Shown: positions 180 through 9,856 of the stretch, piece by piece
How the letters are laid out: the number at the start of each line of letters is the position of its first letter
How positions within the stretch are numbered: the first letter of the stretch is position 1
IMG/VR virus record: IMGVR_UViG_2698536618_000003
Strand: one strand, 5' to 3'
DNA length: 10,947 bases
From: a virus
Lineage: Duplodnaviria > Heunggongvirae > Uroviricota > Caudoviricetes
The notes under the pieces: generated by a model
Told to the model about the DNA's origin: nothing
The model's input: the letters and a program-made list of their open reading frames with translations, nothing else
Databases searched by the model: none
Program-made: the position numbers and the translations under genes

Positions 180-335
180 TTACTCCTCAGGTTCGTAAGC
201 TGTGAAGACAGCGACCTCCGTCTGGCCGGTTCGGACTCGTACCTCGCAGAGGTCTTTCCTCGTTACCAGTGCCGTCACTATGACGGTTAAACAGATGACG
301 ATCAGGGCGATTAACATCGCCTTTTGCTGCTTCAT
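180..335 (-). CDS. hokD: Hok/Gef-family type I toxin (51 aa)
   Basis: Translation MKQQKAMLIALIVICLTVIVTALVTRKDLCEVRVRTGQTEVAVFTAYEPEE has one hydrophobic helix and the conserved C..C tail of Hok/Gef toxins. It is near-identical to my recollection of E. coli HokD/RelF (unverified). ATG at 335-333 with AAGGAG about 10 nt upstream. The track ORF 180-392 is an in-frame upstream extension of this gene. Confidence 0.85.
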   Translation of the reverse strand: MKQQKAMLIALIVICLTVIVTALVTRKDLCEVRVRTGQTEVAVFTAYEPEE

Positions 336-580
336 AGCCTGCTTCTCCTTGCCTTTCGGCACGTAAGAGGCTAACCTACGTTTGTGAAGCATAGATTGGG
401 CCTCAGATTAATGTTAAGCGTCTTGCAGGACGCGTAATGTTAACTGGGGCTTTTCTCTGTCTGCCTTACGGTGGCATGCCCGAGGCAGACAGCCTCAAGC
501 ACCCGCAGCAATTCTACTTAACTCTCGCTTTACCGCAAACCGTTTTTACCCGATATGGGAATTCCCATATCGTAATGAAT

Positions 581-6250: not shown

Positions 6251-6773
6251 ACGAACCCCTGGCAGACATTTGTTTATCTGCAAAGTAATATTGATATTGC
6301 TGACGATACGCATGCTTGAAAGCAATAGCTTTTTCTATAAGCTCGTCAGTCTCACGTTCCACAACAGATGGATCCGCAAAAAGCAGCCCGGACTCCACCA
6401 CATCGCCATATTCTTTGTTTAACCCGGCGATCATGTACGTAATGCTTTTCCCGTCAGTAATTTCACAATACAACCTGAAATCGCTGATCCGGATAGCCTC
6501 CATAATTGCCGGAATCAGCGCCGTGAATTTTTCCCGCTTATCCCTGGTGTCGATAGCTTTCCAGCGTTCGAATATCTTCACCCGGTTAACGCCCAGCGCC
6601 CGTTGATCAACCTCGCCATCATTAAACGTGACGCGTTGAACATCGATGTTCGGGCGTTCTTTCAGAGCCCAGAATGCTTCCGTGATTAATATCGTCGCTT
6701 GCTCCTGTGTCATTCCTGGTCGACATACCCAGGTATCCAGAGCCTCACAAACCTGTTCAGGGGTGATTTTCAT
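6222..6773 (-). CDS. YdaT-like protein occupying the cII position (183 aa)
   Basis: ATG at 6773 overlaps the 3' end of the upstream Cro-like gene by 17 nt. Sits directly downstream of a YdaS/DicC-family gene as in the Rac ydaS-ydaT pair. Family assignment is from context and weak remembered similarity only. Confidence 0.6.
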   Translation of the reverse strand: MKITPEQVCEALDTWVCRPGMTQEQATILITEAFWALKERPNIDVQRVTFNDGEVDQRALGVNRVKIFERWKAIDTRDKREKFTALIPAIMEAIRISDFRLYCEITDGKSITYMIAGLNKEYGDVVESGLLFADPSVVERETDELIEKAIAFKHAYRQQYQYYFADKQMSARGSYEYRCTTMG

Positions 6774-6984
6774 TGTTCAACCGCCCCGCCCGCTTTGCCT
6801 TACGATATTCGTCATAAACTTTGGGGTCGTACTGAAGTTCCCCGCCGGATGCCTCCTGTAGACGCATCGCGCGACCTTCAGGAACCAGTTTCCCCCATGC
6901 AGCAACGCTTGCCAGCCTAACTCCTGCGGCATTGGCAAGCTTTGTTTTGCTGCCAAAAAACGCTATAGCATCAATTTTCAACAT
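6757..6984 (-). CDS. dicC: Cro-like regulator, DicC/YdaS family (75 aa)
   Basis: ATG at 6984 with AAGGAG 7 nt upstream. Small protein divergent from the DicA-like repressor. The motif …LVPEGRAMRLQEASGGELQYDPKVY… is as I recall for YdaS/DicC-family proteins (unverified). Confidence 0.75.
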   Translation of the reverse strand: MLKIDAIAFFGSKTKLANAAGVRLASVAAWGKLVPEGRAMRLQEASGGELQYDPKVYDEYRKAKRAGRLNNENHP

Positions 6985-7060: not shown

Positions 7061-7468
7061 ATGAAAAACGAAACCTTCGGTGCTCGCCTCTTATACAGGC
7101 GTAAAAAATTAAAACTGTCTCAGGCCGCATTAGGTAAGCTGGTCAAAGTGGCTCACGTAACAATTTCTCAATGGGAAAGAGATGAAACACAGCCAGCAGG
7201 GAAGAGATTATTCGCACTGAGCCAGGCGCTCCAGTGCTCGCCGACTTGGCTTCTTTTTGGAGATGAAGATAAGCAACCAGGCGAACCGATCCCAGATAAT
7301 CAGCCAGTTAATCTGACAGAAGATCAAAAAGAGTTGCTTCAACTGTTCGACGCACTGCCTGAGTCAGAGCAAAAGGCTCTGTTGTCAGAGATGCGTGCTC
7401 GAGTTGAGAATTTCAACAAACTTTTTGAAGAACTACTCAAAGCTCGCAAAAGAAGCGCAAATAAATAA
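7061..7468 (+). CDS. dicA: DicA-like HTH (XRE-family) repressor, 135 aa
   Basis: N-terminal HTH (…LSQAALGKLVKVAHVTISQWERDET…). Conserved blocks LFALSQALQCSPTWLLFGDEDKQP and MRARVENFNKLFEELLKAR match my recollection of E. coli DicA. Same length as DicA (135 aa). No SD before the ATG. Confidence 0.85.
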   Translation: MKNETFGARLLYRRKKLKLSQAALGKLVKVAHVTISQWERDETQPAGKRLFALSQALQCSPTWLLFGDEDKQPGEPIPDNQPVNLTEDQKELLQLFDALPESEQKALLSEMRARVENFNKLFEELLKARKRSANK

Positions 7469-7674: not shown

Positions 7675-7827
7675 ATGGATACTATCGATCTTGGCAACAA
7701 CGAATCTCTGGTATGTGGCGTGTTTCCAAACCAGGACGGCGCGTTCACCGCGATGACGTATACCAGAAGCAAAACGTTTAAAACTGAAGCTGGCGCGCGT
7801 CGCTGGTTAACCAGAAACACTGACTGA
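7675..7827 (+). CDS. ydfA: YdfA-like small protein (50 aa)
   Basis: ATG at 7675 with GAGGT upstream. Translation MDTIDLGNNESLVCGVFPNQDGAFTAMTYTRSKTFKTEAGARRWLTRNTD is as I recall for Qin YdfA. The track ORF start at 7621 lacks an RBS. Confidence 0.75.
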   Translation: MDTIDLGNNESLVCGVFPNQDGAFTAMTYTRSKTFKTEAGARRWLTRNTD

Positions 7828-7838
7828 TGAGGTTGACG

Positions 7839-8213
7839 ATGGAATTTAAAGATTTACCAGTACCATTCCAGGAAATGGCATCGAATGTGGTTCGCTCTCA
7901 ACTGGCGACTCTTGACCTGAGTACCGTAGAAAAAGAAACCATCGATAATATATCCGGTAACGTGCGTCGTGCCTTTATCGGACTGTACGAAGAGAAGCAA
8001 CTCTCTGATAACCAGGATTTACATAAAAAATACTTCTTGGAATTAATGGACATCATTGATAAGGGATTTGGCTTGTTAATGAAACAGAAAGGGATTCGAA
8101 TGAACCCCATTGAAAATTACTTCGCAACAAGAAGCATTAATTCCTGTGATTTAAAGCATCCCGCCACAGACGGGAGTGTTACAGTTAGCCATGAGATTTC
8201 GATTAATCATTAA
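7839..8213 (+). CDS. Hypothetical protein (124 aa), AT-rich, unknown family
   Basis: ATG at 7839 with GAGG 6 nt upstream (an alternative ATG at 7827 overlaps the ydfA stop). Codon usage is visibly AT-richer than neighbouring genes. No recognisable motif. Confidence 0.65.
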   Translation: MEFKDLPVPFQEMASNVVRSQLATLDLSTVEKETIDNISGNVRRAFIGLYEEKQLSDNQDLHKKYFLELMDIIDKGFGLLMKQKGIRMNPIENYFATRSINSCDLKHPATDGSVTVSHEISINH

Positions 8214-8424
8214 AATCAATAGCTATTTCAATAAGTGATGCCATCTCGTTGCATTTTGTTGAATTCATCTTACGTAATGAGTCACAAATATCTGATGGTT
8301 GTGATGCTGCTGGCAACTTAGCAGCAAGTAGCATAATTGCCGTTTTTATAGCAGTGAGTTCATCCGCAAGTCCAGCAGGAGAAACATCGTGGTTAAACTG
8401 GATATTTACATTTTTACTAGTCAT
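8203..8424 (-). CDS. Hypothetical small protein (73 aa), convergent with the 124-aa gene
   Basis: ATG at 8424-8422 with GGAGG 5-9 nt upstream. Translation MTSKNVNIQFNHDVSPAGLADELTAIKTAIMLLAAKLPAASQPSDICDSLRKMNSTKCNEMASLIEIAIDFND. Its 3' end overlaps the 124-aa gene by 11 bp. The track ORF extension to 8637 lacks an RBS. Confidence 0.5.
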   Translation of the reverse strand: MTSKNVNIQFNHDVSPAGLADELTAIKTAIMLLAAKLPAASQPSDICDSLRKMNSTKCNEMASLIEIAIDFND

Positions 8425-8759
8425 TTCACCCTCCTGAGGGTTGGTAATTAAGGAGTTCTCCACGGGTGAGGTGGAGTGCGTGCGCCGGACACGGGTGAGC
8501 ATCCGGCACTGACAGTTTACTGAAAGGATATTTCCATGAAAAGTCAGACCATGACGCGAAAGCGCACGGCGAGGTAGCTGGTTCATAGATAACCTGTCGT
8601 TAAATTTTCGTCGACCGTGCGCTTCCGGTTGTGGCACTCCGCGAAATGGCGCGGCGGTAAGTATGGCGGGGTTATTCCTTCCACCGTTGAGGACACCGGG
8701 TTGTCAGGTTGACCATACGCTTAAGTGACAACCCCGCTGCAACGCCCTCTGTTATCAAT

Positions 8760-8812
8760 TTTCTGGTGACGTTTGGCGGTACCAGTTTTACTCCGTAACT
8801 GCTCTGCCGCCT
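8760..8812 (+). ncRNA. dicF: DicF small RNA homologue
   Basis: TTTCTGGTGACGTTTGGCGGTACCAGTTTTACTCCGTAACTGCTCTGCCGCCT differs at about 3 of 53 positions from the E. coli K-12 DicF sequence as I remember it. Ends in a GC hairpin (GGCGG…CCGCC) followed by TTTTTT at 8811-8817. Lies upstream of dicB as in Qin. Confidence 0.75.
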
Positions 8813-9106
8813 TTTTTAAAGTGAATTTTGTGATGCGGTGAATGCGGCTCAGCGCACGCGGAACAGTTAAAACAAGCGGTCTTTTACGGGCGTAACGGGA
8901 ATGCTCTGTATCCGGCGTTAATTGTTAACTGGTTAACGTCACCTGGAGGCACCAGGCACTGCATCAACAAAGTTCACTTCGGTGATGAAGGGTAAGAGAA
9001 AATGTTGAATGTAGCTATTGAAAACCAGAACGGGTGGAATTATAGTGCACCTGCACCTCATAAAGCGGGTGCCGGGCGTGGAAACCCGATGATGACTACT
9101 GCGCAT

Positions 9107-9129
9107 AACCGCGCTCATGCGGTTTTTTT
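9107..9129 (+). terminator. Hairpin plus T-run (possible intrinsic terminator or attenuator) upstream of the Rha gene
   Basis: AACCGC-GCTCAT-GCGGTT followed by TTTTTA. It is nested inside a longer imperfect inverted repeat CGCATAA…TTATGCG (9102-9134). Confidence 0.3.
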
Positions 9130-9298
9130 ATGCGTAATGCACAGCCACATTCAGATTATGGTGGGGCGTGCAGGGCAGCCGAAAGGCTGGCCGGTTTCGG
9201 TAGTCACCGGTATTTCCACCCCTGTACGTCTCACCACCCTTATGGTCGTGGAAAGCCTTGGTGGTGAGTTATTTAAACTGACTATCGAGGCTGCCATC

Positions 9299-9856
9299 AT
9301 GGCTACTATCCATACCCTTTCTCACCCTGACGTAACCATCGAAAATGGACGCGCTGTCACTACGTCTATTGCGATCGCTGAGTTCTTTGGTAAACGCCAC
9401 GAACGAGTGTTGGATAAAATTCGCAATCTGGACTGTTCAGCAAAATTCACTGAGCACAATTTTGTGTCGAGCGAATATACCGACTCAACCGGTCGCAAAC
9501 TCCCAATGTACCAAATCACCAAAAACGGCTTCGTTTTCCTGGTGATGGGCTTCACCGGCAAAAAAGCCGCTGCATTTAAAGAAGCCTACATCGCTGAGTT
9601 CGATCGCATGGAGAAAGAACTGCGCCAGAATAACGCCCCGTCTCCCGACAAAATGATTCACGGGGACGGACGTACCCTGGTTATCCGTCTCGACGAACAC
9701 GGCAATATCAAATTCACTGAAACCGTTCCGGACGGCGCAATGGTCTGCACCCTGGATACCTTCCAGTTTTATCTGGAGAAACAAGGCTGGACTCTTGTAA
9801 ACCGGAGCGCAATTAAAAATATGACTGTGGAGCAATTACTAAAAATTCATTGTTGA
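9299..9856 (+). CDS. Phage regulatory protein, Rha family (about 185 aa)
   Basis: The segment …VTTSIAIAEFFGKRHERVLDKIRNL…YQITKNGFVFLVMGFTGKKAAAFKEAYIAEF… matches what I recall of the Rha (Phage_pRha) domain. Start chosen at ATG 9299 with GAGG about 9 nt upstream. The track ORF is open from 9002, but that extension has odd composition and contains the hairpin/T-run at 9107-9129. Confidence 0.7.
   Translation: MATIHTLSHPDVTIENGRAVTTSIAIAEFFGKRHERVLDKIRNLDCSAKFTEHNFVSSEYTDSTGRKLPMYQITKNGFVFLVMGFTGKKAAAFKEAYIAEFDRMEKELRQNNAPSPDKMIHGDGRTLVIRLDEHGNIKFTETVPDGAMVCTLDTFQFYLEKQGWTLVNRSAIKNMTVEQLLKIHC

Follow-up and report, generated by a model that had tools for sequence, protein, structure and literature searches.

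A counter-oriented small gene behind a conserved structured leader in the early operon of a Qin/DicA-type prophage

The window analyzed here is the whole 10,947-nucleotide (nt) stretch of IMG/VR virus record IMGVR_UViG_2698536618_000003 (Caudoviricetes). It covers the immunity region and early-left part of a lambdoid prophage of the Qin/DicA type. Inside the DicA-repressed operon, between ydfA and the small RNA (sRNA) DicF, lie two convergent open reading frames (ORFs): ORF-A, 124 amino acids (aa), on the plus strand and ORF-B, 73 aa, on the minus strand. Both have good Shine-Dalgarno (SD) sequences, and their 3' ends overlap tail to tail by 11 bp (8203-8213, stop codons included), confirming what had been read from the sequence alone. 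ORF-B is a protein-coding gene that follows a conserved, structured leader, and it occupies the position that sieB holds in lambda and Rac.

Counter-oriented genes in described prophages

The gene sieB (superinfection exclusion B) is found in lambda and Rac, and also in P22. In lambda, sieB is opposite to the pL operon and adjoins the 3' end of N tail to tail. In Rac of Escherichia coli K-12, racR, ydaG, and ydaF (DUF1391) come first; sieB follows on the other strand, its tail overlapping that of ydaF by 4 bp, and next are the sRNA kilS and kilR, which encodes an FtsZ inhibitor. The window has the order dicA, ydfA (DUF1391, the homologue of ydaF and in the same position), ORF-A, the counter-oriented ORF-B with its tail overlap, DicF, and a remnant of dicB. 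Like sieB, ORF-B faces the early-left operon and lies tail to tail with a promoter-proximal gene. Its place ahead of dicF-dicB parallels that of Rac sieB, which is just ahead of the division-inhibitor genes kilS-kilR. Because position and orientation match Rac and lambda, ORF-B and the alternative cargos described below occupy a sieB-equivalent slot. Rac sieB does not have the conserved leader of the ORF-B unit. The Rac locus (L159, 4906-5812) has the same architecture made of other parts, and the 3' end of its kilS region resembles the DicF terminator region.

The moron concept is associated with Hendrix and Juhala. The ORF-B unit shares with morons a deviant guanine-cytosine (GC) content (36% vs. 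48%), presence or absence between otherwise collinear prophages, and an orientation against the lytic genes; it also has a candidate promoter and terminator of its own. The segment 7839-8424 has a GC content of 38.7%, compared with 48.1% for the whole window. This low GC is confined to ORF-A codons 54-124 and ORF-B (36% each); values for ORF-A codons 1-53, ydfA, and the ORF-B leader are 44%, 49.7%, and 60%, respectively. An AT-rich segment between ydfA and DicF, and its identity as a horizontally acquired moron, had both been proposed in the sequence-only reading. The analysis supports both: the segment is a moron-type insert, mobile and presence/absence-polymorphic. Unlike morons, many unrelated cargos of this slot have in common one conserved structured 5' untranslated region (UTR) that includes the SD and start codon. 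The insert also differs at its other boundary, which falls within a coding gene; the C-terminus of that gene is swapped together with the cargo. Transcriptomic criteria for morons are available (Owen et al. 2020, PMC7067206). In Salmonella prophages, genes antisense to lytic genes and with a promoter of their own have been shown to be accessory loci that are active in the lysogen, and the prophage antisense RNA STnc6030 excludes its cognate phage, BTP1 (PMC7067206).

Counter-transcripts that overlap an early or lytic gene at its 3' end are represented by lambda OOP/cII and by STnc6030 of BTP1. The predicted ORF-B transcript would have the same layout, and in both cases the sense/antisense duplex is a likely RNase III substrate. 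Unlike OOP and STnc6030, the ORF-B transcript would carry an ORF that is under purifying selection.

Polymorphic toxin/immunity loci and type II toxin/antitoxin (TA) loci resemble ORF-A and ORF-B in combining a conserved N-terminal region, a variable C-terminal region, and a variable small neighbor gene. Unlike those loci, ORF-A and ORF-B are convergent instead of co-directional, their co-occurrence is not obligate, and domains and cargos reassort. Neither protein matches a known toxin or antitoxin fold or family. Type I toxins are small hydrophobic peptides, usually under 60 aa and with one transmembrane helix, that an overlapping antisense RNA controls. ORF-B is longer and acidic, ORF-A is helical and soluble, and of the type I features the antisense overlap alone is present. 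Variable defense hotspots of P2/P4-like elements were reportedly described by Rousset et al. 2022. The ORF-B slot resembles these in its conserved flanks and in the fast-exchanged, mostly uncharacterized cargo at a fixed prophage locus. It differs in that its cargos are single ORFs of 30-112 aa with a shared RNA leader, inside an early operon.

ORF-B, its leader, and the alternative cargos

Strong purifying selection acts on ORF-B, and in no frame but its own. The ratio of nonsynonymous to synonymous substitution rates (dN/dS) is 0.09 and 0.17 against homologues that are 74% (Salmonella) and 63% (metagenomic) identical. In the other five frames of the same DNA, the corresponding ratio of nonsynonymous to synonymous differences (pN/pS) is at least 0.38 and stops are present. 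ORF-B is thus a genuine counter-oriented gene, and the conservation on which the sequence-only reading depended is borne out. RefSeq/PGAP calls both genes, as hypothetical proteins (WP_001553098.1 and WP_000202161.1), and both are hypothetical in every source of a 15-billion-protein collection. An exhaustive HMMER search found a small ORF-B family of about 10 clusters with no annotated member. ORF-B is assigned to phrog_7249. Neither ORF-A nor ORF-B has a match in Pfam or NCBIfam, and their PHROGs matches are of "unknown function" only. A PDB sequence search with the ORF-B family profile gave nothing credible, and fold searches gave nothing informative on function. In the literature on the dicBF operon, DUF1391, and the two accessions, no description of either ORF was found.

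The AlphaFold2 (AF2) model of ORF-B has three helices, at mediocre confidence (predicted local distance difference test, pLDDT, 67). The protein is acidic and its helices are amphipathic. Lysines occur inside the most hydrophobic stretch, and there is no hydrophobic span. Upstream of the ATG the frame is open for 71 codons, and forms of 114-127 aa are called in some database entries. A 144-aa in-frame form (8203-8637, minus strand) was considered and rejected, as the extra part is the conserved structured leader and all cargos have in common the SD and the ATG at 8424. The upstream extension is probably not translated.

The leader consists of two hairpins followed by a small hairpin that partly occludes the SD (Table 1). 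On the minus strand its fold energy is -35.7 kcal/mol (z = -4.05), compared with z = -0.12 on the plus strand. Hairpin 1 has three to four G.U pairs, which on the plus strand are A.C mismatches. Compensatory changes are seen in hairpin 2, where four pair types (CG, AU, GC, and UA) occur at a single position. In the leader alignment, 86% of cells are paired vs. 29-47% when the partners are slid out of register. The strand-specific z-scores, the G.U pairs, and the compensatory changes place the fold on the minus strand. A plus-strand RNA element, put-like or for processing, was rejected on the folding and the G.U pairs. An Rfam search of 8050-8830 returned, at E <= 1, DicF and nothing else; the leader matches no family, and none at gathering thresholds. 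Pairing between DicF and the leader is weak by eye.

The same leader precedes many different genes. In E. coli, the upstream sequence through the SD and ATG is identical for four counter-ORFs, of 73, 77, 91, and 92 aa. About 85 nt of leader is also present upstream of the Salmonella and metagenomic ORF-B homologues. A scan of IMG/VR with the leader pattern found more than 120 loci, with ORFs of at least 10 unrelated families behind the leader. These include ORF-B (73-75 aa), proteins of 77, 91, 92, 63, 112, and 104 aa, a 62-aa zinc-ribbon-like protein, another protein of 73 aa, and a proline-rich peptide of 30-36 aa. Outside E. coli and Salmonella, in a scan of one genome per species, the leader was found in two species of Edwardsiella, in Trabulsiella, in Pluralibacter, and in one contig labeled Chryseobacterium; the remaining matches were chance matches in GC-rich genomes. 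IMG/VR and GTDB loci together place leader units in five genera of Enterobacterales: Escherichia, Salmonella, Edwardsiella, Trabulsiella, and Pluralibacter. Compared with Pfam and PHROGs, the other cargos match only PHROGs of "unknown function". The 62-aa cargo has a likeness to the restriction-alleviation protein Lar (E 0.007) that is below the Pfam cut-off.

The recurrent peptide of 30-36 aa is proline-rich and basic (MRINQFGGTERPRPDGQVPYRPTPAPKPKK; loci L137, L154 (Edwardsiella), L141, L147, L101, and L050). Its composition is reminiscent of proline-rich antimicrobial peptides. K-12 Qin (L012, MG1655, about 2543-2640, which is NC_000913.3 about 1649042-1649140) has the promoter-like region and hairpins 1 and 2 but neither SD nor cargo. 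This remnant adjoins the stop codon of ydfC, which predicts an antisense transcript into ydfC.

The promoter and terminator of the unit are candidates read from sequence motifs. In most unrelated contexts, the shared sequence starts with GCCGGAT, at the base of hairpin 1, with a TAnnnT hexamer 6-7 nt upstream. The -10-like hexamers are TAAACT, TAAAAT, TAACAT, and TAAGCT; L009 and L113 have no clear one. From the homology edge and the hexamer spacing, transcription is predicted to start at about 8507-8510. A putative terminator-like hairpin with a U-run lies inside the ORF-A coding sequence. This element is kept in the 91-aa variant, where L006 has a stronger version of it, of 9 pairs, 26 nt past the cargo. 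The 250 nt from leader to DicF (8511-8760) are nearly invariant among all Qin-type loci compared and exceed the flanking coding genes in this respect. This stretch contains the candidate minus-strand promoter and belongs to the "long untranslated region" of the dicBF mRNA.

Table 1. Positions of the ORF-B unit, ORF-A, and neighboring features in the window.
Feature	Position	Strand	Details
ORF-B, 73 aa	8203-8424	-	SD AGGAGG 8430-8435, spacer 5 nt
ORF-B 5' leader, 85 nt	8425-8509	-	Conserved, structured; folding and comparison
Leader hairpin 1, 11 bp	8509-8499 paired with 8492-8482	-	
Leader hairpin 2, 6 bp	8476-8471 paired with 8463-8458	-	
SD-occluding mini-hairpin	8441-8437 paired with 8432-8428	-	SD 8430-8435
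Candidate sigma-70 promoter of ORF-B unit	8514-8542	-	TTTTCA (8542-8537), 17-nt spacer, TAAACT (8519-8514)
Terminator-like hairpin and U-run (candidate)	8081-8108	-	Scan match GGGGTTCATTCGAATCCC + TTTCTGTTTC; inside ORF-A coding sequence
ORF-A, 124 aa	7839-8213	+	SD GAGG 7829-7832, 6 nt upstream of ATG
ORF-A N-terminal domain, codons 1-53 (MEFKDLP...LYEEK)	7839-7997	+	Conserved backbone
ORF-A variable C-terminal part, codons 54-124	7998-8213	+	AT-rich; last 11 bp overlap ORF-B
dicC	6757-6984	-	Window annotation
dicA	7061-7468	+	Window annotation
ydfA (DUF1391)	7675-7827	+	Pfam PF07151, E 7e-28; first gene of DicA-repressed operon, left-hand backbone flank
DicF sRNA	8761-8812	+	Rfam RF00039, 70.5 bits; right-hand landmark of slot

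ORF-A, its separation from ORF-B, and competing explanations

ORF-A is an early-operon protein in its own right and not an obligate partner of ORF-B; its N-terminal helical hairpin is conserved, and its C-terminus is exchangeable. The N-terminal domain has 22 invariant residues over five C-terminal types and is modeled by AF2 as a helical hairpin (pLDDT about 80). Residues 1-64 match phrog_6937, 1363, 2151, and 9419, and Shiga toxin (Stx) phages carry the domain at 44-46% identity. It is joined to several unrelated C-termini in proteins of 106/109, 122, 124, 133, 135, 187, and 201 aa. The C-terminal part is swapped for unrelated sequence in the 133-, 135-, 187-, and 201-aa variants; the 106/109- and 124-aa forms have codons 1-106 in common and face different cargos. 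With a pN/pS of 0.3-0.45 (0.3-0.4 in the C-terminal part), ORF-A is coding under weaker constraint than ORF-B. The whole AF2 model is mediocre (pLDDT 61), with residues 90-124 disordered. An alternative start codon, an ATG at 7827, lies across the ydfA stop; from there ORF-A would be 128 aa long. The two ORFs had been taken for one cassette. That is not supported: codons 1-53 of ORF-A are conserved backbone, and the variability is that of the ORF-A 3' half and ORF-B only.

Related loci have five arrangements: the 124-aa ORF-A with ORF-B, the 124-aa ORF-A alone with the ORF-B body and SD precisely absent, the 106/109-aa ORF-A with a 91-aa counter-ORF, the 133-aa ORF-A with a 92-aa counter-ORF, and, in phages PPompW and Evi, a 135-aa ORF-A with a 77-aa counter-ORF. 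A census of 5,426 complete E. coli genomes found ORF-B in 88, the 92-aa cargo (C92) in 127, the 91-aa cargo (C91) in 198, and the 77-aa cargo (C77), O157:H7 included, in 650. In 461 genomes, ORF-A is joined directly to a truncated leader with no cargo.

ORF-B homologues also occur outside Qin-type prophages, again counter-oriented and with an overlap onto the convergent gene's 3' end. Salmonella phage 118970_sal3 has one that is 34% identical and faces a 56-aa protein (sal3 gp051 is named as the partner). No link could be made between this homologue and the lysogeny-expressed ST64B gene STMMW_20121. A Cox-type Salmonella prophage has a homologue that is 74% identical, with a 57-aa partner that has a KHVIALLLEDAKRL-type domain, and IMG/VR contigs carry homologues with other partners. 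The partners of the ORF-B relatives are of three unrelated kinds: the ORF-A middle domain, the KHIIALLLEDAKRL domain, and sal3 gp051. The KHIIALLLEDAKRL domain is the C-terminus of the 133-aa ORF-A in E. coli, opposite C92, and is also found opposite ORF-B relatives and the zinc-ribbon-like cargo; domains and cargos thus reassort. Since ORF-A is alone in more genomes than carry ORF-B, and relatives of ORF-B have other partners, the two are not an obligate pair.

The cassette had also been suspected to be an intact form of something degraded to ydfB/ydfC in K-12 Qin. This is not the case, as the cassette coexists with ydfB and ydfC, which are neither homologous to it nor mutually exclusive with it at the locus. 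Two IMG/VR loci (L039 and L020) encode a 136-aa protein in which a YdfC-like N-terminus (MQKREPVIIAPDYTDDE...) is fused to the KHVIALLLEDAKRL domain, and this protein converges on a distant ORF-B relative. The fusion shows that domains are shuffled between ydfC, the C-domains of ORF-A, and small proteins that stand alone.

The explanation preferred here, held with moderate confidence, is that ORF-B is the cargo of a compact counter-transcribed unit and encodes a prophage-expressed accessory protein, most likely for phage exclusion, with antisense interplay. A role in phage-phage conflict is suggested by the anatomy of the unit, its sieB-equivalent slot, and the published precedent. The unit would be about 430 nt long, counter to the DicA-repressed early operon, and would comprise a weak sigma-70 promoter, the leader, ORF-B, and a 3' end within ORF-A. 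The leader opens with a stable 5' hairpin and closes with a partly occluded strong SD. In this explanation it is a portable module, with recombination placing many unrelated small ORFs behind it. The slot is found past the first early-left genes, with which it lies tail to tail, and upstream of the division-inhibitor sRNA and protein; sieB has this place in Rac and lambda. While the operon is repressed, the unit would be transcribed from the prophage, and ORF-B would act in phage-phage or phage-host conflict, most likely by excluding incoming phages. On derepression of the operon, convergent transcription together with a sense/antisense overlap of more than 400 nt would shut the unit down and affect the operon mRNA. 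The architecture is well supported: the anatomy of the locus, the coding nature of ORF-B, the minus-strand fold of the leader, the range of cargos, the separability of ORF-A and ORF-B, and the match in position to sieB are all shown, and from these and the precedent the promoter, the terminator, lysogen expression and its timing, and the exclusion role are inferred.

Several observations weigh against this explanation. ORF-B does not align with Rac SieB in BLASTP and has no Pfam match. SieB is a membrane protein of 162-192 aa, and ORF-B is small and soluble. The candidate promoter is weak (8 of 12 consensus positions, under the threshold of the scanner), and the number of terminator-like matches is not above chance. 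K-12 and the ORF-A-only genomes retain the promoter-like region and hairpin 1 without any ORF, so the leader may act on its own. No PADLOC model matched ORF-A or ORF-B, the two proteins scanned. An abortive-infection, exclusion, or anti-defense module had been among the initial suggestions, and what it gains is positional support from the slot, with no defense family match for ORF-B. Lastly, in about 120 Qin-type loci each cargo occurs with exactly one ORF-A type: ORF-B (B73) with 124 aa, C77 with 135 aa, C91 with 106/109 aa, C92 with 133 aa, C63 with 201 aa, and C73b with 187 aa. This may mean functional pairing.

Such pairing would make ORF-A and ORF-B a cognate toxin/antitoxin or effector/immunity pair, as was also first suggested. 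The ORF-A C-domain would be an effector on induction and ORF-B a prophage-made neutralizer, with type-specific immunity among related prophages. Besides the one-to-one pattern, the likeness to polymorphic toxin loci speaks for it. Physical linkage suffices for the pattern, however, which is best explained by tight linkage. The intact 124-aa ORF-A without a counter-gene, the three unrelated partners of ORF-B relatives, the various cargos that face the KHIIALLLEDAKRL domain, and the different cargos opposite ORF-A forms with codons 1-106 in common all argue against a pair, as do the convergent genes, which are not co-transcribed, and the lack of any TA or PADLOC match. ORF-A is also cut by IS1 in two lineages in which ORF-B is intact. 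These insertions (L156 895-1740, L157 901-1740) are independent, have opposite orientations and different prophage backgrounds, and lie in the ORF-A 3' part (~8130-8150 equivalent). A cognate pair is accordingly judged quite improbable. The minus-strand transcript could instead be mainly an antisense RNA, the ORF being secondary, that silences leaky read-through to the toxic dicF/dicB, silences ORF-A, or excludes related phages by base pairing. OOP/cII and STnc6030 (PMC7067206) are precedents. The 3' end of the convergent gene is overlapped in every variant, by 11 to 68 bp, the predicted 3' end is about 100 nt inside ORF-A, and loci without an ORF keep the promoter-like region and hairpin 1. 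Against this are the selection on the protein (dN/dS 0.09), the conserved strong SD and ATG that start every cargo, and the unrelated cargo sequences, which would make the antisense target within the cargo differ each time. As the main function this is improbable, and it is compatible with the preferred explanation as a second, additional role of the transcript.

A further possibility is that ORF-B and the other cargos are anti-defense or host-takeover proteins of the lytic cycle, with the structured leader delaying or gating their translation. Small, acidic, helical, fast-swapping cargos beside early genes are typical of anti-defense loci, the SD is partly sequestered, and the sub-threshold likeness of the 62-aa cargo to Lar fits as well. 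The orientation against a strong early operon, by contrast, would suppress expression exactly in lytic growth. The prophage expresses sieB, the known occupant of the slot, and anti-defense families gave no significant match. This possibility is unlikely.

The surrounding region and significance

The window has lost most of dicB, which is an 84-bp remnant (within 8882-9856); the near-identical strain MS20654 has it annotated as incomplete. Next come an isrK-like RNA (9053-9129) and a C4-antisense-like RNA (9154-9241), within or ahead of a Rha-family ORF (9002-9856). This region is an antirepressor module of the P1 c4/ant or Gifsy isrK type, in place of the usual dicB-ydfD. A hok/sok type I toxin-antitoxin locus is present at 180-504, with a sok RNA (330-504, minus strand) and a 70-aa ORF (180-392, minus strand) that is hokD in the annotation of a related strain. 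In MS20654, the closest relative, a relBE toxin-antitoxin pair lies between the repressor gene and ydfA (L001 5286-5764). It is not in the window and is another variable insert in the same operon leader.

What is already known is that these proteins are in databases as hypotheticals and that a counter-oriented moron, sieB, occurs at this position. In the literature searched, no description was found of one conserved structured 5' UTR serving at least 10 unrelated small cargos in five Enterobacterales genera, with the C-terminus of the neighboring early gene co-exchanged. Tentatively, prophages of Enterobacterales may have in this leader a portable cis-regulatory 5' UTR of an undescribed kind, made up of a stabilizing 5' hairpin, a second hairpin that covaries, and anti-SD elements (CUCC/CCCUC). 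Such a UTR would identify a dedicated cassette slot for a new set of small effectors expressed by the prophage (at least 10 families, ORF-B among them) with exclusion, defense, or host-modulating roles, and the transcript would also restrain the toxic dicF/dicB operon by antisense action.

Roughly a fifth of complete E. coli genomes have one of the four cargos counted in the census. The carriers include O157:H7 and the extraintestinal pathogenic strain IHE3034, and no cargo protein has a known function. With the leader as a simple sequence handle, a whole set of small prophage genes, probably active in lysogens, could be harvested. Small lysogen-expressed genes have repeatedly been found to be modulators of defense, exclusion, or virulence. 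The predicted antisense transcript would lie within the dicBF operon, which has been studied extensively, and K-12 has a remnant; the transcript could bear on the silencing of the operon's toxic products.

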